Shown here piece after piece: positions 1,241-43,278 of a DNA stretch of 43,688 bases. Below the pieces are notes generated by a model. The model had not been told where the DNA came from. It was given only the letters and a program-made list of their open reading frames with translations, and searched no databases. Source of the DNA: a virus (lineage: Duplodnaviria > Heunggongvirae > Uroviricota > Caudoviricetes); the IMG/VR virus record IMGVR_UViG_2526164631_000038, one strand, 5' to 3'. The position numbers and the translations under genes were made by a program. Within the stretch, counting starts at the first letter, position 1. Each line of letters opens with the position of its first letter.

Positions 1241-1397
1241 ATTTCAGGTCAATCCATGCATACACAAGCAATTCCTGTATTGAATAATTCCGTAGCAATT
1301 ATGTAAAATCATCTCCGGCTGATTTTCATTCAAACTCGCGCTATCGAACGTCCATCAGCCAGCCGTGGCACGTTCTTGCATACGACGTGCTACGGTT

Positions 1398-1952
1398 TCA
1401 TTTATCTCCGACTGGAAACTTCTTATACAAAGTCGATACGCCAACATCATAAATGATCGCCACCTTCTGGCGAGGAACTCCTGATGCAATTAATCGTCCG
1501 GCCTGTGCCCATTGTTCTGGTGTAAGTTTGGGACGTCGTCCACCAATTCGTCCCTGTGCGCGAGCAGCTTCCAGTCCTGCTTTTGTTCGTTCAACAATCA
1601 GTTCTCGTTCCATTTCAGCCAGGGCCCCCATCACATGAAAGAAAAAACGCCCCATCGGTGTGCTGGTATCAATAGCATCCGTCAGGCTGCGAAAATTAAC
1701 GCCACGTTCGCGCAACTCCTCAACCAGAATGACCAGATGCCGCATACTACGCCCCAGCCGATCCAGCTTCCAGACAACCAGAGTGTCACCTGCCGATAAT
1801 GTCCTGAGCAGTTTTTTCAGTCCCGGCCTTTCGGACTTTGTACCGCTTATCTTGTCTTCAAAAATCAGCTCGCATCCTGCACAGTTCAACGCATTACGTT
1901 GTAGATCGGTATTCTGGTCATTTGTTGATACGCGTACATAGCCAATAAGCAT
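1398..1952 (-). CDS. site-specific DNA invertase, serine recombinase of the Pin/Gin/Hin family
   Basis: Translation from MLIGYVRVSTNDQ... with catalytic-Ser motif and C-terminal HTH; 184 aa from the ATG at 1952, which has a GGGAGA Shine-Dalgarno. The longer 1988 start lacks one. Confidence 0.9.
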   Translation of the reverse strand: MLIGYVRVSTNDQNTDLQRNALNCAGCELIFEDKISGTKSERPGLKKLLRTLSAGDTLVVWKLDRLGRSMRHLVILVEELRERGVNFRSLTDAIDTSTPMGRFFFHVMGALAEMERELIVERTKAGLEAARAQGRIGGRRPKLTPEQWAQAGRLIASGVPRQKVAIIYDVGVSTLYKKFPVGDK

Positions 1953-2040
1953 GGTAGGTCTCCCTGACAAAAGCAGGAATGATGCCATTTGCTCGTTATT
2001 TCTGCATTTTCATAAACGTTGGTTTGGGAGAAGCGGCAAA

Positions 2041-2353
2041 ACGAAATGTGGGAACAGGGGAAAATCAGATACCTGATATGTCATCATATGCATCAGGTTC
2101 AGGCTGGCGAAAAATGCCAGATGGTTCAATTGAACAGTGGGGACGAATTAGTTTTCCTGGTGAACACGGGCCTGTATCCGCCAATGTTTCATTCCCAATT
2201 CCATTTACACAGACACCGGGCATTGTAATTGTGTGCGATGGTGGTTTCGGGGGCGGGAATATGTGGGGGGCGACCAACTGGAGCACTACCGGCTTCATAG
2301 CTCACTGCAATTATGGTCTTGAAGGTGGTGCGTTTTTCGCTAAGGGCTGGTAA
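2041..2353 (+). CDS. promoterless alternative tail-fibre C-terminal cassette (Sv'-like) inside the invertible segment
   Basis: Open frame without its own N-terminus. Encodes ...[12 protein letters not shown]..., whose NVGT block is homologous, in inverted orientation, to the NVGT near the C-terminus of the fibre gene at 3370..4215. Confidence 0.5.
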
Positions 2354-2796
2354 TGATGAAATATCTGTACGTAAACAACCTGGCATATCCTTACGAACTT
2401 CAGTCTCTTTATGTTGAAAAAGGTGAATGGCCTGAAGAAAAAGGTGTTGATATAGACGAAGTAATTTTCAGGGAATATTTCTATGATACACCACCAGAAG
2501 GAAAATACAGATGTGTCGGAGAGGATGGACTGCCTGCATGGGCAGATATTCCTCCACCAACACGTGAAGAACAAATTGCATCAGCCGAAACTAAAAAGCA
2601 GCAATTGATTAACCAGGCCAACGAATACATCAACAGTAAACAATGGCCAGGTAAAGCATCAATTGGTCGTCTGAAAGGTGAGGAACTGGCGCAATATAAT
2701 TTGTGGCTGGATTATCTGGACGCACTGGAACTGGTCGATACTTCCGGTGCGCCAGATATTGAATGGCCTACGCCTCCGGCAGTTCAGGCCAGATGA
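2353..2796 (+). CDS. tail fibre assembly protein, alternative copy (Tfa')
   Basis: 147-aa ORF; ATG overlaps the preceding stop (TAATG); C-terminal region typical of caudoviral Tfa chaperones; pairs with the Sv' cassette. Confidence 0.65.
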   Translation: MMKYLYVNNLAYPYELQSLYVEKGEWPEEKGVDIDEVIFREYFYDTPPEGKYRCVGEDGLPAWADIPPPTREEQIASAETKKQQLINQANEYINSKQWPGKASIGRLKGEELAQYNLWLDYLDALELVDTSGAPDIEWPTPPAVQAR

Positions 2797-3373
2797 CGTC
2801 CGGCGCTGTGCTGGTATCTGTTGCCGTCACCGCGTCAATGTAATCCAGCACAGCGTTAAGTCGGGTGTTTTCTGGCTGCGTCAGCTTCCGCCCAGCCTGT
2901 AATTTCAGTTGAATCAGACTAATGGAAGCCATTGCAGCATCAATCAGTGACTGACGCTGTGCTTCTGCCGCTTCGACTGCTGCGCTATGCTGTGCCTCAG
3001 TATCGGTCACCCATTTCTCACCATCCCATTTATCGTATGGCGTTAATGGAGCGATAGTGGTTGTATTTTCAGGGTAATCACCCGGAGCTGTGATTTCTTT
3101 TGATTCTCCTGTTTCAGTGCTATAGACCGTTTCACCGCGATGGTCTGGCACATATTCCCATGAGTTAAAATCTGCAGAACGGCAAATTGCATAACCAGCT
3201 TTATATGAGCCAGGAGCATCTAAACAGGAACATGCCGGGATACCGACACCCACAGCAAGATATTCAGTTGATGTGGAAATATATTCCCGTGTCTCACCAT
3301 CATAATTGTAAACGGTAATGTCTCCCGCCTTTGTGGTGATGAGTTCGCTATTTAATACAGCTTTATTCATCAT
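2768..3373 (-). CDS. tail fibre assembly protein (Tfa), currently expressed orientation
   Basis: 201-aa ORF directly downstream of the fibre gene; C-terminus resembles Tfa chaperones; convergent with Tfa'. Confidence 0.7.
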
Positions 3374-4215
3374 GCGGCCCTTACGATATAATTAAAAGCG
3401 ATGTTACGAGGACGAGTTTCTGTACCTACATTTTCACTAATTTCACCATAACGTTTAACACTACGAGAGCTAATAGCTCGTAGTGAGGAAGGCACATTAA
3501 GACCGGGTTCGTCCGTTTTAACTATTCCCCCGTCACCGTATGTAGCCAGTATTCCTGGGTTTACTCCTTCCCGTGCACTTCCTGCGGCGAGTCCGTCCCC
3601 TGTCCATAATTCCATATAGTGTGCATGGTCCAAAATTGTGTGTGGCTGCCAATTAAGCAAAGCGCGACCAGTATCAATCCCGCGACCGTCATCCCAGCCA
3701 CGAATAAATTCACCGCGTAAATCAGGCAATTTATTGGTCGGGTAAGCCTTTGCCAGTTCCGGGTATTCTTCAGCAGAAAAAGCCGCACCGTTGCATTTCA
3801 GCCAGCCTGTTGGCGGTGTGACTGAAGGCCACGGAACAGGCACACCAACAGGTAATGCAGAACCTTCTCCCAAACCAAGGTTTTCGAGAGCCGTTTGCAC
3901 AGTGCCATCCGATTTGATATCGCCAAACGGATTCTTGCGGCTCAGGTATTCAACAGCAAACCCCGATCCCAGCAATTCAACAAAACCGGGCAGATCACCA
4001 TTATCAAGCACATCCCGTTGCGTTTTGTCACTTACAAACTGGGCCAGAGCTGCAGCAATAAAGCTGGCCTGTCGAATGGCTTTGTTCACCTGCGCACTGG
4101 ATGCTTTCCCTGCTGTAAATCCGGATAAAAGCGCAGGCAACGCTTCCCATTCCTCCTGCGACATAACATTGGCATTTCGATCAGTTGCAAACGCTTTAAA
4201 GTCATTTTTCGCCAT
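3370..4215 (-). CDS. tail fibre protein
   Basis: Gly-rich beta-type sequence with a collar-like segment ([18 protein letters not shown]) and the C-terminal [16 protein letters not shown] typical of phage fibres; start MAKNDF at 4215 overlaps the upstream stop. Confidence 0.75.
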
Positions 4216-4895
4216 CAGAGTAATACTCCCCATGCTCCTACATCAAAACCACTGATGAATTCGTTATCCATATCAAAACCAAAAAATTTTGAGCCTTCCG
4301 ATGGGGTTTCCACCGAAGGAGTTTCAATGCCCCCCGCCCATACCCCGGCGGCTTTTACTGTGAGATACCCCTGTTTAATTGCCGCAATTAACTCACGCGA
4401 TACATCTGAAATATCAGTATCAGGAAAGACCCAGACCGATATCGTCATGTCCTGGTTATCGACTATCTGCATTCGCAGCCCGGATCCTGCTGTTGCCGCG
4501 TCAAGAATTGCCGGAAGCGAATCATTCCGTCCGTCCCAGTTATTAATCGCAATCTTCGCTTTAAGGATGACACGATAAGTTTCATCGCTGAGGTACATGT
4601 ATCCGGAATCAGGATCGTATGGTCCCTGCCATACACCCTGATCATATCCAAGCCCGTCGGTATCCCAGCTGAAATAAACACCTGAGATAGGCTGGCTGAC
4701 AACACGGCTACGTCCGATCCACAATCCCAGAATGTCAAGTTGCACACCAACCGCAGAGTCAATATCAAATGCAGTAATCAGCCCTCTGGTGGCCGCCGCA
4801 ACATCAATAAGCGGCCGGGTCATCAGATCAACATGTGCAAGAAATTTAGGTTTGGTGGCGTGGTAGTTCGTGATTAGTTCGGTGTATTTGCTCAT
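4215..4895 (-). CDS. baseplate protein (Mu gp48-like)
   Basis: 226-aa ORF between the baseplate J-like gene and the fibre gene, translationally coupled; position and size fit Mu gp48. Confidence 0.55.
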
Positions 4896-6091
4896 GACTC
4901 CACCGTTATAACGATATTTTCCGGGGTACAGGACGCAGATTCGTTGTATCTGATATCAATGTTTGATGACGACAAAGCCCCCGGAGATTTCCCAATCGTC
5001 AGTTCCTGAATATCGTAATAGCGTGCATTCCCGCCACTCACCACGCCAAGATTCGCCGGTGAGTAAATGCGACTTAAAAGGACCGAATCACCAATCATCA
5101 GACTATTGATATAGTCGGAAATAGCCTGCTGGATCTGCTGCCCTATCTGTGAGGTATAACCCGTAAAAACTTTTAATTTAATCCGGGCATAAACAGGCAC
5201 ATCACTGGAACGCGAGAATTTGATTACATGGGGATTGCCGTATTTATCCGGAACCGTAACGGATGTTGTACCGTGAGTGGCTGTCCCCTGGCCTTTATTC
5301 CCTCTGATAGCCTGAGCAATATCCATCACATCACCGCCATCCACAATTACAGCAACAGAGTGTGGCGGTAACCCGTTACCGTCCTCCGAACCAGTATCGT
5401 TTTCATAGAGTTTGTGGCGGGTTACACCGGTAACATTAGAAACAGCACCATCCAGTGCTTCAAATGGGGTTATTGATGGCAACGCAACACTTTGCGACTG
5501 GCGGATACGTAACTCCGCATCAGTTTCTGCCGGAGAGCCAACAGTAGCCGCAGCAGGATTAGTTACCGAAACCCAGCCACGGGTTGGCGTATTAATTTCA
5601 GTGATAGTTCCAGCCAGCGCCGCCACTGCACCACTGACGGAACATGTTGCGGTCGCCATCACTGTACCATCCACGCCGACCACCACTGAAGCAGGCAAAC
5701 GCCATATCACACTATTACTGTCTTTCACGCTGCCATTAATGATGGTTGTTCCGGCAGTTCCTGTAAGAAGCAAATCAACCGTAGAATTCGTCGCGCCTTT
5801 ACGTGAAATACCATTTATTTTCACGTTACTGGTCAGTGCGGCCCCATAGCCGGTTGCCGGTGAAAAACAGTTGTAGACAGTTATCGCAGTATTATTGGCA
5901 TCATGAATCGCCAGCGCCATCAGAGCCACCATCTGGCCGTCTTTACTATCCGGTTCGAGGTAGGCATCACTGCCATAAATCTGCTGAAAATAGCTAATCA
6001 GGGTGCTGAGTATCGTCTGATAATCAGGCGCACTGATCCCCTCCGCGGTTACCTTTGCAGATAAACCGAGAGAATCAAGGTTCAGAGCCAT
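4892..6091 (-). CDS. baseplate J-like protein (Mu gp47 / P2 gpJ family)
   Basis: 399-aa ORF with an N-terminus characteristic of Baseplate_J proteins as recalled; in conserved baseplate gene order. Confidence 0.7.
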   Translation of the reverse strand: MALNLDSLGLSAKVTAEGISAPDYQTILSTLISYFQQIYGSDAYLEPDSKDGQMVALMALAIHDANNTAITVYNCFSPATGYGAALTSNVKINGISRKGATNSTVDLLLTGTAGTTIINGSVKDSNSVIWRLPASVVVGVDGTVMATATCSVSGAVAALAGTITEINTPTRGWVSVTNPAAATVGSPAETDAELRIRQSQSVALPSITPFEALDGAVSNVTGVTRHKLYENDTGSEDGNGLPPHSVAVIVDGGDVMDIAQAIRGNKGQGTATHGTTSVTVPDKYGNPHVIKFSRSSDVPVYARIKLKVFTGYTSQIGQQIQQAISDYINSLMIGDSVLLSRIYSPANLGVVSGGNARYYDIQELTIGKSPGALSSSNIDIRYNESASCTPENIVITVES

Positions 6092-6444
6092 TACGCCTCC
6101 GATTTAACAGTCGTTATTCCATAGAGAGTGTCGATTTCAGCGGAAAACATGACACGTCGGGTCGTGGTATCCACCGTCGTATTGAAAGAGAGGATTGATT
6201 TAACGCCCCGCGTTTCGAGGATGCGCTTACGGATCGCCAGGTTGTAGGTTTCCGGCTTCTGCTTACCGAGCACAGACTGGATCCACGGGGTCCCTTCGGT
6301 GGTGTCGAGAAACCATTGCCCATACCACAATTCAAATCACGTTTTTACCGCCTGCGCCACGGCCTCCGGTGAGTTAATCAGCCAGGTGTCATCACCGCTG
6401 CCAAAGGTGTAATCGCCATCGGCGTCTTCACGTCTGTATCGCAT
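6091..6444 (-). pseudogene. small baseplate protein (Mu gp46-like) interrupted by an in-frame TGA
   Basis: ATG at 6444 overlaps the upstream stop (ATGA). Frame reads MRYRREDADGDYTFGSGDDTWLINSPEAVAQAVKT, then TGA at 6337..6339, then the same frame continues FELWYGQWFLDTTEGTPWIQSVLGKQ... to 6091. Confidence 0.6.
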
Positions 6445-7196
6445 CAGTTTACCCTATCGGTATTGCTTCCACCGCGCTGAACACCGCCATGAGTGTGCGT
6501 ATCATCGATTGGCTTGCCGTTAGCCTTCACGCTACCCAAAAACTCAACAGCACCAGTGATTTTTGAAGCCACACCAGAAACCACAGACCCCACCATGCCA
6601 CCCATCCAGGTTAACAGGCCATGAATGGTTACTTTCTCAGAAAAATCAGCCAGAGGGGCAACCACATCAAGACCACCCGGAGCGACAATTTTAATTTTCC
6701 TGGTATCAGGATTAAGCTCAAAATAGGTGCTGCCGTCGTCACTACGCAACTGTGTGGCACTGGTATTAATACCGCTAATCTTCCTCGCCTGCGACTGGGG
6801 ACCGACAATACAAAACGCATCCGATAAATCATGCATTCTGTCATCAACAGGCTCCTGTATCCCGCCGTTCTGCCACCAGAAATCAATACAACGATCGGCA
6901 AAAACAACAAGACACTCATCCCCGGCTTTAACCGGAAAAGTCAACGTACAGCCTCCGCCGCGCGGAAATACCACTGGCACATCCACCAGCAACGGGTAAT
7001 TTTTGGTAATGCGGTTACCGTCGTTATCCTTTTCAACCGAACGGATAGCTGGCTGCACAACCGCCGTCACCGCGTCGGGATCGAATGACTGAACAATGCC
7101 AGGCAAGGCGACACGGATCTGGTTCTTTGTGGTTTCCCGTTCAGATTTGAATGTTTCGGCAAGGTCGCCGCTGCGGGTCTGGTCAGATACTGCCAT
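6444..7196 (-). CDS. baseplate assembly protein V / spike (Mu gp45-like)
   Basis: 250-aa ORF; VVFPRGGGCTLTFPVKAGDECLVVF segment resembles the gpV OB-fold; in baseplate gene order. Confidence 0.7.
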   Translation of the reverse strand: MAVSDQTRSGDLAETFKSERETTKNQIRVALPGIVQSFDPDAVTAVVQPAIRSVEKDNDGNRITKNYPLLVDVPVVFPRGGGCTLTFPVKAGDECLVVFADRCIDFWWQNGGIQEPVDDRMHDLSDAFCIVGPQSQARKISGINTSATQLRSDDGSTYFELNPDTRKIKIVAPGGLDVVAPLADFSEKVTIHGLLTWMGGMVGSVVSGVASKITGAVEFLGSVKANGKPIDDTHTHGGVQRGGSNTDRVN

Positions 7197-7210
7197 TTAG
7201 TAGGCTCCAG

Positions 7211-7238
7211 AAAGCAAAAAACCCGCCGGGTGGCGGGT
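7211..7238 (-). terminator. rho-independent terminator after the moron gene
   Basis: Minus-strand hairpin CCCGCCACCCGGCGGG followed by TTTTTTGCTTT. Confidence 0.65.
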
Positions 7239-7255
7239 TCATTATTGAAGTTTCA

Positions 7256-7495
7256 TTACTGCTTGTTTGCTTCTAACGCTTCAGCTATTCGGCGAAGATA
7301 CTCATTGTTTTTAAATGAAACCATGATGCACTCAAAGAATATTCGGCAAAATACAGCACATAACAAAAGCACTAAAGCGCCAGCAGCCTTCCCATTAACA
7401 AACGTTATAATGGCGGCAACAACCAGAAGTAACATTGTGATGCCATACAGAACGTTGATGATTTTTGGAGTTATTAATTTATCAAATCCGAACAT
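7256..7495 (-). CDS. small integral membrane protein (moron)
   Basis: 79 aa with two hydrophobic helices (ITMLLLVVAAIITFV, GALVLLLCAVFCRIFF); no structural-gene character; followed by its own terminator. Confidence 0.6.
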   Translation of the reverse strand: MFGFDKLITPKIINVLYGITMLLLVVAAIITFVNGKAAGALVLLLCAVFCRIFFECIMVSFKNNEYLRRIAEALEANKQ

Positions 7496-27905: not shown

Positions 27906-28061
27906 TTACTTCTCAGATTCGTAGTCCACGAAGACAGCAACCTCCGTCTGGCCGGTTCGGATTCGTACCTCGCAGAGGTCTTTCCTCGTTACCAGTGCCG
28001 TCACTATGACGGTTAAACAGATGACGATAAGGGCGATTAACATCGCCTTTTGCTGCTTCAT
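27906..28061 (-). CDS. hok: Hok/Gef-family membrane toxin
   Basis: 51 aa MKQQKAMLIALIVICLTVIVTALVTRKDLCEVRIRTGQTEVAVFVDYESEK, nearly identical to HokD/RelF as recalled. Confidence 0.85.
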   Translation of the reverse strand: MKQQKAMLIALIVICLTVIVTALVTRKDLCEVRIRTGQTEVAVFVDYESEK

Positions 28062-28618
28062 AGCCTGCTTCTCCTTGCCTTTCGGCACGTAAGAGGCTAA
28101 CCTACATTTGTGAGACATAGATTGGGCCTCAGATTAATGTTAAGCGTCTTGTAGGACGCGTAATGTTAACTGGGGCTTTTCTCTATCTGCCTTTTGGTGT
28201 TCATGCCTGAGGCAGATAGCCTCAAGCACCCGCAGCAATTCTAACTATCCAATAGATCAATGCCAACTTCTTTTCCTGCAACATCTCTCATCATAAGTGA
28301 CCAAAATTCATCCAATCAGCACAAAAGAAACATTTAAAGCGTGAATGCTACCGAACGTTCATTTCAATTACATCGTTTTGATTTTTAACAGTTTTTACCT
28401 CAACAAATCAAATGGCATTAGCATTCATCATGGAAGAAAGACTGATAAAAATGATCATTTTCAATGACTTATGATCACACCGGGTATTGCCAAGTCATTC
28501 CTTTTACGCCAGGATACCCACAAGTGAGTAGTCGAGGAGAGTTTGCCAATTTTTGCGATATAAATTTCAATGTCCGAAGAACCATTAATTGTTAATTGAT
28601 TCTGTATAAGGTATTAAC

Positions 28619-35642: not shown

Positions 35643-36037
35643 CGGAATACCTTATTACTGGTTGTGTGAGAACTCCAGTATACCACCGAGCCTGAAGTGG
35701 TAAAAAGACAGGCGCACAACACGAAGGCGCATTTCCGGTATTCATAAAGAGTCGGTCTTGTCTGTTAAATTTAAATGGTGGGAGTGCGCCTCCGGTTGTA
35801 AATAACGACATTGCTATGTGTAGTCTTTGGCGGCATCAGTTCTACTCCGTGGCTGCCCTGTCGCCCCTTTTTAAAGTGAATTTTGTGATGCGGTGAATGC
35901 GGCTAAGCGCACGCGGCACAGTTAAAAGCATCAGTGTTATGGGTGGATTATCCGGCGTTAATTGTTAACTGGTTAACGTCACCTGGAGGCACCAGGCACC
36001 GCATCGACAAAATTCATTTGTAAAAATGGAGATAATT

Positions 36038-36878: not shown

Positions 36879-39800
36879 ATGAGCACCGATAAACAAGTTT
36901 ACCCACTGTATTACGAAGCAAAAAATGACAAAGTAAGAAAACGTCTCGGTATTAAAGGCGGTTTTTACTGGGCTGAAGCGAAAAAATTATCCATTGCCAT
37001 CTCCCGTGGTGCTGTTGCAATTGACGATGCTGGCTACGATGAAGATGACTTCAAAAAACCTGTTCGCGTCAATTTGCCCATTGTTGATGACCTCCCGCCA
37101 GAAGGCGTATTTGATACGGAATTCTGCAACCGTTACGAAAAAGGCGGGGAAGATGGCATCACAATGGTATTTATCGCGCCCTCCCCCTCTGCGCAGGGCA
37201 AACCAGCCAGCACTGACAACACCAATGTTAATGGCGAAGACATGACGGAGATTGAGGAGAATATGCTACTTCCGATTTCTGGCCAGGAGCTGCCCATTCG
37301 CTGGCTTGCTCAACACGGCAGCGAAAAACCAGTAACGCACGTTTCACGCGACGAACTCCAGGCATTACACATTGCACGGGCTGAAGAACTACCGGCTGTT
37401 ACTGCCCTGGCTATTTCGCATAAAACCAGTCTGCTCGACTCGCTGGAGATTCGCGACCTCCACAAACTGGTTCGTGACACTGACAAAGTTTTCCCTAATC
37501 CTGGTAATTCAGACCTGGGACTAATAACTGCTTTTTTCGAAGCATACCTGGACGCTGACTACACTGATCGGGGTCTGCTGACAAAAGAGTGGATGAAAGG
37601 AAATCGTGTTTCACGCATCACCCGCACGGCTTCCGGTGCTAATGCTGGCGGTGGGAACAAAACCGATCGCAATCCGAATTTAGTACACACCCTCGACACA
37701 CTGGATGTGGAGATTGCAGCAGCCACACTTCCGATGGATTTTAATATTTATGAAATTCCGGGCAGCGTTTATCGTCGCGCAAAAGAAGTAGTCCTGAACA
37801 AAGAAAGTCCGTTCAAAGAATGGTCCGCAGCACTTCGTGCAACCCCGGGTATTCTGGACTATTCCCGCGCCGCTATTTTTGCACTTATCCGAAGCGCACA
37901 CCCTGAATTTTATCACTACCCGGGACGCCTTCAGGGGTATATCAACGCCTATTTGACGGAAACTGATCACGAGAACCCCAGCAAGGAAACTCTCACAGCT
38001 GCCCGGCATACGCCGGAAAAAGATATCCTGGAAGAAATTAACCGCGAGGTGGTTACTGAGCGTGAAACAGAAGAAGAAAAACCACAACCATCTGACGCAA
38101 TGGCAGGTGAACAGGCAACAACTGAAACAATGGAACCGGATACAACTGAACATGGCCAGAACGCGCAGTCGCTGGATGCTCAGTCGCAGGTGAGTTCCGC
38201 TAACCAAGTAAAAGTCACCGCTGACGAAGTAAACAAAATTATGCAGGCAGCCAATATCAGCCAGCCTGACGCCGATAAGTTACTTGCTGTATCGCGTGGT
38301 GAATTTGTTGAGGGGATTAGCGACCCTAATGATCCGAAATGGGTCAAGGGGATCCAGACTCGCGATTCTGTGAACCAGAACCAGCATGAATCGGAACGGA
38401 ACGACCAAAAAGCGGAACAAAACAGCCCAAATGCGTTACAAAACGAGCCAGAAACGAAACAATCCGAACCAGTAGCGCAACAGGAACCGGAAAAAGTCTT
38501 CACCGCCTGCGGTCAGAGCGGTGGCGGCAACTGCCCTGATTGTGGCGCGGTGATGGGCGACGCAACATACCAGGAAACATTCGATGAAGAGAATCAGGTT
38601 GAAGTTCAGGAAAATGATCCGGAGGAAATGGAAGGTGCTGAACATCCGCACAAGGAGAACGCTGGCAGCAATCCGCATTGCGATTGCAGTGATGAAGCTG
38701 GTGAAGCGACAGCACCTGTAGTAACTGAAATCATGTGGCCGTCATATTTCGAGCCTGGCCGCTATGAAAACCTCCCGAACGAGGTTTATCACTCCGCCAA
38801 CGGAATAAGCAGCACAATGCTGAAGGATGCCCGCATCAGCCTGATGTATTACCACGGACGGCACATTGCCGGAACTATTCTGGGCGAGGAAAGTGATGCA
38901 TTGCTGCGTGGGCGGATTATTCACAGCTATGTTCTGGAAACGGATAAATTCGCTGATGAGTATGCCATTCCGGTACCGGTTCCTGAATATGTGGTTACTA
39001 CTTCTAACGAACTGATCGCCATCATTAAAAAACACAATGCCAGTCTGCCAGCACTGATGACACCAGAGCAGATGAAAGAGTGGATCGAAAGCTACAACAG
39101 CACTCTTATACAGCCACTGTCGGTAAGTGCCGGGGCCGAAGAAACAGGCATCCTTTACGGTTCGCTTCCGGAGGAATTCCGGCGTATTCCTGAGGGGGAA
39201 AAACACACAGCATCAGCAATGAAAGCCTGTATTAAAGAATACAACGCAAGCCTCCCTCCTCTGCTGAAAGCCAGTGGAACACGGGAGCAGCTCCTGGAGC
39301 AAATTGAAACTGTAGATCCAGAACTGGCAAAAAAAGAACGTGCTAAATCTTTGCCTTACAACATCAGTGGCACAAAAGAGCAATTAACCGAAATCGCCCG
39401 GAAAATTCGCCCGGAACTGGTGACACTGGAGGACTGGCAAAAATGCCAGCAAGAAGAAAACGCCGGGAAAACGTTTATCAGTCCGGATATGTATGAACAG
39501 GCAAAAAATATTCACGCAGCACTGCAAAACAATACTGATGCAGCAAGGCTACTCAACCACCCGGATCGCAAATCTGAAATCAGCTATTTCGGGTTTGATG
39601 AAGAAACCGGGCTGGAAATCAGGGTCCGTCCTGATATCGAAATCCGGCTGCCATACGAAAGCATTTGCGCCGACGTGAAGTCAGTCAGCCTCGGTTATGT
39701 GCGACAGGAACGACTGAAAGATCGCCTGCACCGTGAAATTATTGAGCGTGATTATCACCTCAGCGCAGCAATGTATTGCGATGTGGCAAACCTGGACAAA

Positions 39801-40022
39801 TTTTTCTGGATCTTCGTCAACAAAGATGCTGGCTATCACTGGGTGGCCGTCGTGGAAGCCTCGCAGGAACTCCTGGAACTTGGTCGACAGGAATATCGCC
39901 GGACGCTACGACAGATAAACGAAGCTCTGGAGACAAACAACTGGCCAGCACCGATTACCGAAAGTTATACCGACGAATTAAACGACTTTGATCTTCGTCG
40001 TCTTGAAGCACTGAGCATCTGA
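36879..40022 (+). CDS. recE: RecE-like exonuclease VIII (PD-(D/E)xK C-terminal domain) with long acidic N-terminal/middle region
   Basis: 1047-aa ORF; C-terminal ...IRVRPDIEIRLPYESICADVKSVS... nuclease-like motif; followed by a RecT-family gene as in Rac. Confidence 0.65.
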   Translation: MSTDKQVYPLYYEAKNDKVRKRLGIKGGFYWAEAKKLSIAISRGAVAIDDAGYDEDDFKKPVRVNLPIVDDLPPEGVFDTEFCNRYEKGGEDGITMVFIAPSPSAQGKPASTDNTNVNGEDMTEIEENMLLPISGQELPIRWLAQHGSEKPVTHVSRDELQALHIARAEELPAVTALAISHKTSLLDSLEIRDLHKLVRDTDKVFPNPGNSDLGLITAFFEAYLDADYTDRGLLTKEWMKGNRVSRITRTASGANAGGGNKTDRNPNLVHTLDTLDVEIAAATLPMDFNIYEIPGSVYRRAKEVVLNKESPFKEWSAALRATPGILDYSRAAIFALIRSAHPEFYHYPGRLQGYINAYLTETDHENPSKETLTAARHTPEKDILEEINREVVTERETEEEKPQPSDAMAGEQATTETMEPDTTEHGQNAQSLDAQSQVSSANQVKVTADEVNKIMQAANISQPDADKLLAVSRGEFVEGISDPNDPKWVKGIQTRDSVNQNQHESERNDQKAEQNSPNALQNEPETKQSEPVAQQEPEKVFTACGQSGGGNCPDCGAVMGDATYQETFDEENQVEVQENDPEEMEGAEHPHKENAGSNPHCDCSDEAGEATAPVVTEIMWPSYFEPGRYENLPNEVYHSANGISSTMLKDARISLMYYHGRHIAGTILGEESDALLRGRIIHSYVLETDKFADEYAIPVPVPEYVVTTSNELIAIIKKHNASLPALMTPEQMKEWIESYNSTLIQPLSVSAGAEETGILYGSLPEEFRRIPEGEKHTASAMKACIKEYNASLPPLLKASGTREQLLEQIETVDPELAKKERAKSLPYNISGTKEQLTEIARKIRPELVTLEDWQKCQQEENAGKTFISPDMYEQAKNIHAALQNNTDAARLLNHPDRKSEISYFGFDEETGLEIRVRPDIEIRLPYESICADVKSVSLGYVRQERLKDRLHREIIERDYHLSAAMYCDVANLDKFFWIFVNKDAGYHWVAVVEASQELLELGRQEYRRTLRQINEALETNNWPAPITESYTDELNDFDLRRLEALSI

Positions 40023-40033
40023 GGAAGGACACA

Positions 40034-41086
40034 ATGAACGAATTAACTCAACAAGAAAATATTAACTCTAATGTTGCGGTTTTCAGCCCTCAGTCCCTGG
40101 CTGCAATTCAGACATTTTCCCAGGTAATGGCTTCCGGCATGGCTACTGTACCGGAACACCTCCGGGGAAATCCATCAGACTGCATGGCCATCACCATGCA
40201 GGCGATGCAGTGGCAAATGAACCCTTACGCAGTAGCTCAGAAAACTTTCGTTGTGAATGGTGTGCTCGGATATGAAGCGCAACTGGTTAATGCCGTAATC
40301 AGTACTCGTGGGCCGCTAACCGGGCGTATTGAATATGACTGGTTCGGGCCGTGGGAAAAAATTATCGGGAAATTTGAAATTAGGAAGAACGACAAGGGGA
40401 AAGAATATCGTGTACCTGGCTGGAAGCTGGCCGATGAAAACGGGATCGGAGTTCGCGTCCAGGCAACACTACGCGGAGAGAGCAAGCCACGCGTACTGGA
40501 GTTACTTCTGGCGCAGGCCAGAACACGTAACTCAACGTTATGGGCCGATGATCCTCGCCAGCAGCTTGCCTATCTGGCACTGAAACGCTGGGCGCGCCTT
40601 TATTGCCCTGAAGTGATTCTTGGAGTGTACACCCGGGACGAACTGGACGAACCACAGGAAAAAATCATTAATCCGGTTCAGGAACATAAAAATACATCCG
40701 CCTGCCGTGCGGAACGTGAAACAACAATTATTGAGCAGGATGCCGGGGAAAACTGGATCAGTGCTTTCCGTGAACGTATTGAGCAGGCACAAAGCACCGG
40801 AGAAACAACATCACTTCGCCAGGAAGTGGAAGATCATAAAAATACTCTTGGCGCTCTCTACACAGAACTTAAAGGAAAAGTGGTTCAGCGTCATCACCGT
40901 CTCAATGCTATTGCCCGTATTGAGACGATGATAAATGACCTGCCTTCATCAGGTGATCCAGAAGCAGAACAAAAATTTATTGCTCTGGAAAATACGCTGA
41001 ATGCTGCACGACCACATCTGGGAGAATTATATGAGGCGTATAAAACGACACTGACAGATATGAAACCAGAATATATCGGCTCCTGA
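40034..41086 (+). CDS. recT: RecT/Red-beta family single-strand annealing protein
   Basis: 350 aa; ...QQLAYLALKRWARLYCPEVILGV... resembles the conserved Bet/RecT core; operon partner of the exonuclease. Confidence 0.7.
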   Translation: MNELTQQENINSNVAVFSPQSLAAIQTFSQVMASGMATVPEHLRGNPSDCMAITMQAMQWQMNPYAVAQKTFVVNGVLGYEAQLVNAVISTRGPLTGRIEYDWFGPWEKIIGKFEIRKNDKGKEYRVPGWKLADENGIGVRVQATLRGESKPRVLELLLAQARTRNSTLWADDPRQQLAYLALKRWARLYCPEVILGVYTRDELDEPQEKIINPVQEHKNTSACRAERETTIIEQDAGENWISAFRERIEQAQSTGETTSLRQEVEDHKNTLGALYTELKGKVVQRHHRLNAIARIETMINDLPSSGDPEAEQKFIALENTLNAARPHLGELYEAYKTTLTDMKPEYIGS

Positions 41087-41149: not shown

Positions 41150-41344
41150 ATGCGGTATGAAAAAGTCAAACCATGTCCGTTTTGTGGTTGTCCATCAGTA
41201 ACGGTGAAAGCCATTTCAGGATATTACCGCGCAAAGTGTAACGGATGCGAATCCCGAACCGGCTATAGTGGAAGTGAAAAAGAAGCACTCGAAAGATGGA
41301 ATAAACGAACTACTGGAAATAATAATGGAGGTGTTCATGTATAA
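41150..41344 (+). CDS. lar: Lar-family restriction alleviation protein
   Basis: 64 aa from MRYEKVKPCPFCGCP...CNGCESR, a zinc-ribbon of the Lar/RalR type; Rac-like position. Confidence 0.65.
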   Translation: MRYEKVKPCPFCGCPSVTVKAISGYYRAKCNGCESRTGYSGSEKEALERWNKRTTGNNNGGVHV

Positions 41345-41525
41345 AATTACTGCCACTATTGAAAAGGAAGGTGGCACTCCTACTAACTGGACAAGATATT
41401 CAAAATCTAAATTAACGAAATCAGAATGCGAAAAAATGCTCTCAGGGAAAAAAGAAGCAGGCGTTTCCAGAGAGCAGAAAGTAAAGCTGATAAATTTTAA
41501 TTGCGAGAAACTTCTGTCCTCGTGA
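41337..41525 (+). CDS. small hypothetical protein (62 aa)
   Basis: ATG preceded by GGAGG; between lar and xis. Confidence 0.4.
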   Translation: MYKITATIEKEGGTPTNWTRYSKSKLTKSECEKMLSGKKEAGVSREQKVKLINFNCEKLLSS

Positions 41526-43075: not shown

Positions 43076-43086
43076 TAAATACAATT

Positions 43087-43188
43087 AAAAAAGACCGAAT
43101 ACGATTCCTGTATTCGGTCCAGGGAAATGGCTCTTGGGAGAGAGCCGTGCGCTAAAAGTTGGCATTAATGCAGGCTTAGTTGCCTTGC
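43087..43188 (-). ncRNA. sdsR: SdsR (RyeB) small RNA
   Basis: Minus-strand sequence GCAAGGCAACTAAGCCTGCATTAATGCCAACTTTTAGCGCACGGCTCTCTCCCAAGAGCCATTTCCCTGGACCGAATACAGGAATCGTATTCGGTCTTTTTT matches SdsR as recalled, including the terminator hairpin; CTATTCT -10 just upstream. Confidence 0.85.
43093..43117. repeat. attR: right copy of the attachment-site repeat, forming the present 3' end of sdsR
   Basis: GACCGAATACGATTCCTGTATTCG matches the attL copy at 1075..1098 with two mismatches. Confidence 0.75.
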
Positions 43189-43278
43189 CCTTTAAGAATA
43201 GATGACGACGCCAGGTTTTCCAGTTTGCGTGCAAAATGGTCAATAAAAAGCGTGGTGGTCATCAGCTGAAATGTTAAA

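Follow-up and report, generated by a model that had tools for sequence, protein, structure and literature searches.

A Pin-type invertible tail-fibre segment found in both orientations in a temperate myovirus prophage of Escherichia coli

The stretch of DNA analysed here (the window, 43,688 nucleotides) almost certainly carries a two-site, Pin-catalysed invertible segment that is a homologue of the P segment of e14 and the G segment of phage Mu, and that ends the tail operon of a temperate myovirus prophage of about 42 kb. The switch swaps two complete receptor-binding tips, one of 168 aa and of Collar type, the other of 110 aa and gp53-like, behind a constant fibre part of 113 aa. An invertase-controlled switch of the tail-fibre tip had been proposed in an earlier note, made from the sequence alone, and this core claim is supported, as both orientations occur in nature. 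The layout described there, a Pin/Gin-like invertase adjoining convergent tfa and tfa' genes and an alternative fibre cassette, is borne out by the protein domains of the region (Resolvase and HTH_7, two copies of Caudo_TAP, Gp53-like_C and Collar). The features, in window positions, are as follows.

1398-1952, minus strand: pin, encoding a DNA invertase of 184 aa in the Gin/Hin/Pin/Cin group of serine recombinases; outside the invertible segment
1783-1893 (limits approximate), minus strand: presumed Fis-dependent recombinational enhancer, within the 5' part of pin
2007-2032, plus strand: pin-proximal recombination site (pixR-like), reading TTTTCATAAACG TT GGTTTGGGAGAA, with the central dinucleotide at 2019-2020
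2020-2353, plus strand: silent alternative tip (Sv'), 110 aa, gp53-like or R-pyocin-fibre-like, with a Gp53-like_C domain
2020-3877, no strand assigned: invertible segment, 1858 bp between the central dinucleotides; its in-silico flip matches strain 12A
2353-2796, plus strand: tfa', tail fibre assembly chaperone for the silent tip, 147 aa (Caudo_TAP, 4.3e-33)
2768-3373, minus strand: tfa, chaperone for the expressed tip, 201 aa, TfaE-like (Caudo_TAP, 1e-32)
3370-3877, minus strand: expressed variable tip (Sv), 168 aa, of the Collar-domain type
3370-4215 or 4233, minus strand: expressed fibre gene, with a Collar domain
3865-3890, minus strand: fibre-gene recombination site (pixL-like), reading CTCTCGAAAACC TT GGTTTGGGAGAA on the minus strand, with the central dinucleotide at 3877-3878
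3878-4215, minus strand: constant N-terminal fibre part (Sc), 113 aa, outside the invertible segment, delimited by translation and phase

Crossover takes place at gix/pix-type sites at 2007-2032 and 3865-3890. A repeat search of the region reported a single significant inverted repeat, with 19 of 20 positions matching (2014-2033 and 3864-3883); in the 2.8-kb region one inverted 20-mer with at most one mismatch was observed, against none in 20 shuffles. This repeat is located within the two 26-bp invertase-type sites, which are in inverted orientation and consist of imperfect 12-bp half-sites around a 2-bp core, TT in both. A site-pattern scan of the 43.7-kb window returned these two matches only (0.05 expected by chance), and no further sites, such as those of a Min-like multiple-inversion system, were found in it. 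Comparison with the K-12 record shows that 2007-2032 is identical to the pin-proximal site of e14 and 3865-3890 to the e14 site in stfP. In alignments the two sites correspond, respectively, to Mu gixR at the annotated boundary of the G segment and to Mu gixL at the annotated boundary in S. For e14, the site sequences come from the K-12 record and from PMC12529663, where TTGGTTTGGGAGAAGG and CCTTCTCCCAAACCAA are experimentally verified inversion end points for PinE, PinQ and PinR; site 2007-2032 contains the verified e14 repeat TTGGTTTGGGAGAAG(G) (PMC12529663). The suggestion in the earlier note that the sites are partly degenerate does not hold, as the crossover core is identical to that of the verified e14 inversion sites. 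Mismatches flanking the shared stretch confine the crossover to 15 nt, 2019-2033, which include the central TT.

The evidence on orientation comes from comparison between genomes. An in-silico flip of exactly 2020-3877 gives a single-piece match to E. coli O111:H2 strain 12A that is identical at 3601 of 3601 positions, and both orientations therefore exist in nature; the best match of the un-flipped query has 87% coverage at 97.3% identity. The match in 12A lies at the same pphA-adjacent locus (rsmF-yebV-yebW-pphA-pinE). When this locus was compared with the window by blastn, 1-2033 and 3864-7400 aligned at 100% identity and 2014-3883 aligned inverted. The inversion is the sole difference over 7.4 kb, and the overlaps between alignment blocks coincide exactly with the 20-nt repeats. 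Among closely related O103:H2 prophages, that of strain 12009 is oriented opposite to those of strains 2011C-4251, SJ7, UTAK-2/4/6 and 129. In complete E. coli genomes, matches with at least 80% coverage were obtained for the Sc-Collar junction in 61 genomes and for the Sc-gp53-like junction in 9.

The site at 3865-3890 lies inside the fibre gene at codon 113, where it encodes ..LENLGLGE.., and both fusions across it are open, giving a fibre of 281 aa with the Collar tip or of 223 aa with the gp53-like tip. The flipped 223-aa fibre is an intact ORF, annotated in strain 12A as a "gp53-like domain-containing protein", with an annotated start that corresponds to window position 4215. In the late operon the genes for the DUF2612 and Baseplate_J proteins precede the constant part, which around the site shares 93% identity with e14 StfP over its last 30 aa. 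Overall identity between the expressed tip and the e14 stfE' cassette is 59%, and over the first ~75 aligned aa (query 112-186) the two hardly differ; PDB matches of the expressed tip are the tips of T4 gp37 and gp12. For the silent tip, the program-made ORF (1979-2353) reaches upstream through the recombination site to a fortuitous ATG; PDB matches are weak and are to R-type pyocin fibres and a short tail fibre. The two tips thus fall in different fold families, Collar (T4 gp37-gp12-like) and gp53 (R-pyocin-like). Each has its own chaperone, tfa' and tfa being convergent inside the segment; the tfa' product is 59% identical to e14 TfaP in its C-terminal part, and the tfa product is 93% identical to e14 TfaE. 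The tips would be expected to differ in receptor specificity, and the switch may have a consequence for host range.

The ORF of pin extends to 1988, with the start equivalent to that of PinE at 1952. The protein carries an N-terminal catalytic Resolvase domain (PF00239, 1.1e-51) and a C-terminal HTH_7 domain (PF02796, 3.9e-14), is identical to PinE of K-12 e14 at 176 of 184 aa (96%), and shares with it an identical N-terminal catalytic-serine motif (YVRVST, MLIGYVRVSTNDQ). The identical gene is named pinE by PGAP in strains DEC5E and 12A. Over its first ~250 nt, pin is almost the same as e14 pinE and shows conservation at the DNA level with Mu gin; PMC3798978 places the enhancers of Hin and Gin inside or adjoining the 5' end of the invertase gene. 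When pin and gin were scanned with a degenerate 15-bp Fis consensus, no two sites spaced 48 bp apart in pin were convincing. Going by this conservation, the switch may depend on Fis and an enhancer.

Following the established Hin/Gin model, Pin dimers would bind the sites at 2007-2032 and 3865-3890, and the bound sites would synapse, presumably on a Fis-bound enhancer in the 5' end of pin. Cutting at the central TT/AA dinucleotide, rotation by 180 degrees and religation would then invert the 1858 bp from 2020 to 3877. Because the left site is inside the fibre gene, after codon 113, the constant part would stay joined to the late promoter and the baseplate genes. In the window orientation it would be followed by the Collar-type tip and then Tfa (fibre of 281 aa), and in the inverted orientation it would be in frame with the gp53-like tip, followed by Tfa' (fibre of 223 aa). 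The switch is presumably active in this particular strain.

Among the closest known systems is the P segment of e14 with PinE in E. coli K-12 (ymfQ-stfP-tfaP-tfaE-stfE'-pinE), in which the gene order and the position of the invertase are as in the window, both 26-bp sites are identical, and PinE and TfaE are 96% and 93% identical to their counterparts. In addition, stfE' is homologous to the Collar-type cassette, the convergent tfa genes of either system overlap at their 3' ends, and both orientations occur in nature in both; inversion of e14 has been detected in K-12 cultures by sequencing and PCR (PMC4272514). However, e14 is a 15-kb remnant at icd, while the window holds a myovirus prophage of ~42 kb at ryeA/sdsR-pphA. 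The constant part of the fibre differs from that of e14 except for the last ~30 aa, the neighbour of the fibre gene encodes a DUF2612 protein where e14 has YmfQ, a DUF2313 protein, identity between the gp53-like tip and the StfP tip is only 26%, and the segment is 1858 bp long compared with 1797 bp. By expressing the Collar tip, the window corresponds to the "inverted" (StfP2/StfE2) state of e14.

The G segment of Mu with Gin (S-U-U'-S'-gin) likewise has the constant Sc outside and two tips, each with its chaperone, inside. In both Mu and the window the invertase is encoded just outside the segment and starts ~55-67 bp from the site, gin and pin show conservation at the DNA level in their 5' part, and alignment of the sites gives 16 invariant columns, among them AAAC and GGTTT in the half-sites. 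The central dinucleotide, on the other hand, is TT in the window and TC in Mu, the fibres are of 281 or 223 aa compared with the 504-aa S protein of Mu (1515-nt CDS), the tips are unrelated in sequence, and Mu is a transposable phage, which the phage of the window is not (integrase, RecE/RecT). Tail-fibre tips are also exchanged by Din-family invertases in the C segment of P1 (Cin) and in p15B (Min). The p15B Min system has six sites and gives many permutations, compared with two sites in the 43.7-kb window. Hin/hix, of flagellar phase variation in Salmonella, belongs to the same serine recombinase subclass; its sites are of 26 bp and its Fis-dependent enhancer is near the 5' end of the invertase gene (PMC3798978), but Hin flips a promoter from within its invertible segment, whereas the window swaps coding cassettes and has its invertase outside.

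The prophage itself is of myovirus type, has a full structural gene set and lies at the ryeA/sdsR-pphA locus; it carries an integrase and RecE/RecT. No exact att repeats of at least 12 nt were found between the two prophage ends. By eye, a degenerate partial copy of the ryeA/sdsR end can be seen near 1067-1098. In the baseplate wedge gene at 6091-6444, codon 36 is a premature TGA (6337-6339), and the same gene is flagged "internal stop" in strain 12A. The prophage may thus be tail-defective, infectious virions perhaps not being made, and because of this premature stop the host-range consequence of the switch is perhaps moot or vestigial in this copy.

An unlikely reading of the switch is that it serves the lysogen rather than, or besides, the virion, with ORF 1979-2353 being expressed in the window orientation and blocking adsorption of other phages. 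This ORF is the positional equivalent of e14 StfE2, having a short leader from the pin upstream region followed by a gp53-like tip, and its leader is nearly the same as that of the inverted e14 ORF (MMPFACYFFIFIN, read off the K-12 sequence). Production of StfE2, which carries a gp53-like domain and is encoded by an ORF formed beside pinE after inversion, blocks T2 adsorption (PMC12529663), and the possible tail defect of the prophage also favours a service to the lysogen. Nevertheless, identity of the Sv' tip to the e14 StfP/StfE2 tip is only 26%, the StfE2 effects come from plasmid expression, and the conserved leader is explained as the reverse complement of the 5' region of pin together with the recombination site. 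No convincing promoter for the ORF was found, a promoter scan of the silent cassette and pin returning 8 hits, no excess over shuffles (5.7 expected), and the sole Shine-Dalgarno-like AGGA directly abuts the first ATG. It is similarly doubtful that the Pin switch has been kept for host benefit in a possibly tail-defective prophage, where ORF 1979-2353 could be expressed alone and block competing phages. If this were true, inversion would toggle a defence phenotype instead of the host range of the virion.

It is very improbable that the switch is a fossil, in which the orientations are old fixed states of a segment that no longer inverts. Selection on virion functions may be relaxed by the nonsense mutation in the baseplate gene, which favours a fossil, but pin is full length and 96% identical to the active PinE, both sites match functional e14 sites, and strain 12A has both flanks 100% identical and the same baseplate stop together with the opposite orientation. 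Since the flanks are identical and yet the orientation is opposite, the inversion is very recent relative to any point mutation. Inversion is evidently still occurring, or was very recent, in a prophage lineage that already carried the baseplate-gene stop.

The earlier note had placed the crossover at two NVGT blocks, 2044-2057 and 3420-3434, where a 16-aa tail would be swapped for a tip of ~100 aa. The blocks do exist, match at 12 of 14 positions and read NVGT in the same frame, but as crossover sites they have practically no probability and were rejected: the match is at chance level (~19 inverted 14-mers with at most two mismatches are expected per shuffle of the 2.8-kb region, and 45 were observed, real repeats included) and is incompatible with the natural inverted form, given that a flip there would keep tfa in place and not reproduce strain 12A, while the natural end points lie within 2014-2033 and 3864-3883. 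Nor were the blocks reported by the repeat search of the region, and the comparison with gix/pix that the note had called for reveals no resemblance to any such site. Its contrast of 16 aa with ~100 aa is correct arithmetic relative to NVGT but irrelevant to an exchange point that lies elsewhere; the asymmetry is not real because the crossover points were misplaced. With crossover at the 26-bp sites, the alternative C-termini are therefore two complete tips (168 and 110 aa) and not a stub and a tip.

The Pin-catalysed switch described here is of an already known kind, a textbook Pin/Gin-type fibre switch. Identical copies are already present in public E. coli genomes, with pinE annotated, and the value of the finding is mainly that of correct annotation. 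The fibre product of the prophage is set by orientation (Collar tip, 281 aa; gp53-like tip, 223 aa). Differences between assemblies of this prophage in how 2020-3877 is oriented are to be expected and are not to be taken as misassembly or strain divergence. Inversion in a prophage lineage despite a stop in a baseplate gene echoes the situation in the cryptic prophage e14.

The invertase-controlled tail fibre switch that the earlier note had read from this region is real, and the general reading of that note is right. Its gene layout is also correct, since an ORF listing and Pfam scans give a matching order, as follows.

Gene layout and recombination sites (coordinates, strand, feature)
277-936, -, pphA-like host phosphatase gene
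1398-1988 (ORF; PinE-equivalent start 1952), -, serine recombinase (invertase gene pin), Resolvase and HTH_7 domains
1979-2353, +, silent fibre-tip ORF, Gp53-like_C fibre-tip domain
2007-2032, +, pin-proximal recombination site, TTTTCATAAACG-TT-GGTTTGGGAGAA
2353-2796, +, tfa', tail fibre assembly gene, Caudo_TAP
2768-3373, -, tfa, tail fibre assembly gene, Caudo_TAP
3370-4215/4233, -, fibre gene, Collar domain
3865-3890, -, in-gene fibre recombination site, CTCTCGAAAACC-TT-GGTTTGGGAGAA
4215-4895, -, DUF2612 gene
4892-6091, -, Baseplate_J gene

The convergent tfa and tfa' overlap at their 3' ends by 29 nt (2768-2796). A secondary 18-nt inverted repeat (2706-2723/2832-2849) corresponds to their conserved C-terminal coding parts (..LDYLDA../..LDYIDA..), and the tfa genes of the E. 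coli K-12 prophage e14 have a like arrangement of 3' overlap and C-terminal repeat.

The un-flipped region 1300-4900 lacks a full-length match in a set of 5,426 complete E. coli genomes; the best match, likewise at the pphA locus, is O55:H7 strain DEC5E (87% coverage, 97.3% identity). When the invertible segment (2020-3877) was inverted in silico at the central dinucleotides and the search repeated, the region matched E. coli O111:H2 strain 12A in one piece (3601/3601, 100.0%), and FDAARGOS_1059 near-perfectly. The flanks of the 12A locus are those of the window (rsmF-yebV-yebW-pphA-pinE), and blastn between the two gives three blocks, two at 100% (1-2033 and 3864-7400) and one on the opposite strand (2014-3883), whose two mismatches both fall within the repeat arms. 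Adjoining blocks share precisely the 20-nt repeats, and because of a single mismatch at 2018 and divergence beyond 2033, crossover is confined to 15 nt (2019-2033), central TT included. It is unlikely that the switch is a fossil, as pin and the recombination sites are intact, and the 12A copy is otherwise 100% identical yet in the opposite orientation.

Near-identical prophages of O103:H2 strains are likewise found in both states, the window orientation in strain 12009 and the opposite one in at least eight others. Using 400-nt junction probes (coverage of at least 80%), the fusion of the constant N-terminal fibre part (3878-4215, - strand) to the Collar tip was detected in 61 genomes, and its fusion to the gp53-like tip in 9. 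Both orientations thus occur in nature, rather than the single one that the earlier note had named as evidence against a switch. FDAARGOS_1059 (NZ_CP066032.1) carries both junctions at two loci (2622502-2622901 and 3525069-3525468), 100% identical to the probes, and apparently has two related prophages with the fibre module in opposite states.

The crossover had been placed at two blocks encoding NVGT in frame, 2044-2057 and 3420-3434, which match at 12 of 14 positions. This placement is excluded: shuffles of the 2.8-kb region yield about 19 inverted 14-mers as good, and the natural inversion ends elsewhere. The block pair is absent from the output of the inverted-repeat search, in which the top-ranked repeat is 2014-2033 versus 3864-3883 (19 of 20 nt matching); no inverted 20-mer with at most one mismatch arose in the shuffled region. 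The repeat and the 12A comparison identify the true sites as 2007-2032 and 3865-3890, each with a 2-bp core between two imperfect 12-bp half-sites, the anatomy of hix, gix and pix sites. A 26-bp degenerate pattern (up to three mismatches) matches nothing but these two sites in the 43.7-kb window, against 0.05 matches expected by chance.

The in-gene site lies at fibre codon 113, and ..TALENL are the last residues of the constant part (aa 1-113). In the window orientation this part runs into a 168-aa Collar-domain tip (281-aa fibre); in the flipped orientation it is fused in frame to a 110-aa gp53-like tip, giving a 223-aa fibre that is exactly the CDS annotated in 12A. A separate chaperone gene comes after each tip. 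The solved structures matched by the Collar tip are the tips of T4 gp37 and gp12, and the gp53-like tip has weak matches to R-type pyocin fibres. The asymmetry of 16 versus 100 aa suggested previously arose because the crossover was misplaced; the 16-aa stretch is just the ordinary C-terminal end of the Collar-type tip, and e14 stfE' has the same ending.

The e14 Pin and Mu Gin fibre switches, both long known, are close homologues of this system, and public genomes include identical, annotated copies of it. The window invertase is identical to e14 PinE at 176/184 positions and Tfa is 93% identical to TfaE. TfaP is 59% identical to the C-terminal part of Tfa', and the final 30 residues of the constant part have 93% identity with StfP. 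The Collar tip has a homologue in the stfE' cassette (59% identity overall), from which it hardly differs over the first ~75 aligned residues (query 112-186). The comparison with gix and pix sites proposed earlier shows no difference between the two 26-bp sites and those of e14; all four line up with Mu gixL and gixR, which lie at the annotated G-segment boundaries of NC_000929. Experiments have established the e14 repeats TTGGTTTGGGAGAAGG and CCTTCTCCCAAACCAA as inversion end points, and PinE, PinQ and PinR can each flip the e14 segment (PMC12529663). Sequencing and PCR have also revealed its inversion within clonal cultures of K-12 (PMC4272514). In Hin and Gin systems, invertase dimers on two 26-bp sites act together with a Fis-bound enhancer located close to the start of the invertase gene, and double-strand cleavage at the core is followed by 180-degree subunit rotation (PMC3798978). 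The window switch would work in the same way, with dimers, a Fis-bound enhancer, core cleavage and 180-degree rotation; we infer such an enhancer within pin, the first 250 nt of which differ very little from e14 pinE and show good conservation with gin, but a scan of pin with the degenerate Fis consensus found no convincing motif pair at 48-bp spacing.

The ORF at 1979-2353 begins at a fortuitous ATG within the pin upstream region. StfE2, the ORF next to pinE after e14 inversion, is reported to keep T2 from adsorbing when it is expressed (PMC12529663), and ORF 1979-2353 has an equivalent position and a nearly identical 13-residue leader. A similar adsorption-blocking role is nevertheless improbable: the leader is accounted for as reverse-complemented sequence from upstream of pin, the gp53-like tip shares no more than 26% identity with its e14 counterpart, and the ORF has no convincing promoter or ribosome-binding site.

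The switch is carried by an almost complete prophage of ~42 kb encoding baseplate hub, tape measure, sheath, major head protein, portal, large terminase, RecE-like exonuclease, RecT and integrase. Its relatives are the induced E. coli myoviruses vB_EcoM-611R5, 606R2 and 683R1 (78% coverage, ~97% identity) and Salmonella phage SEN34. In its early region, this myovirus-tailed prophage has a rac-like recombination module made up of a 1047-aa RecE-like exonuclease VIII (36879-40022, +) followed by RecT (40034-41086, +). Matches at Rfam gathering level are RalA (41343-41521, -), the antitoxin sRNA of RalR, as in rac; a hok/sok-type sok antitoxin RNA (28056-28231, -); and DicF (35815-35866, +). The prophage is inserted in the ryeA/sdsR locus beside pphA, because full-length RyeA/SraC and SdsR/RyeB sRNA genes lie at its right end (43083-43226, both strands) and a degenerate partial copy (aaaaagagaccgaacacgattcctgttttcg) near its left end (~1067-1098); no exact att repeat of at least 12 nt was found between the ends.

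A premature TGA (6337-6339) interrupts the 117-codon baseplate wedge gene (phrog_120; 6091-6444, -) at codon 36, where the DEC5E homologue has Arg, and the identical 12A copy is flagged 'internal stop'. The window copy may therefore be tail-defective and make no infectious virions. Since 12A shares this stop and has the opposite orientation, the inversion took place in a lineage in which the baseplate stop was already present.
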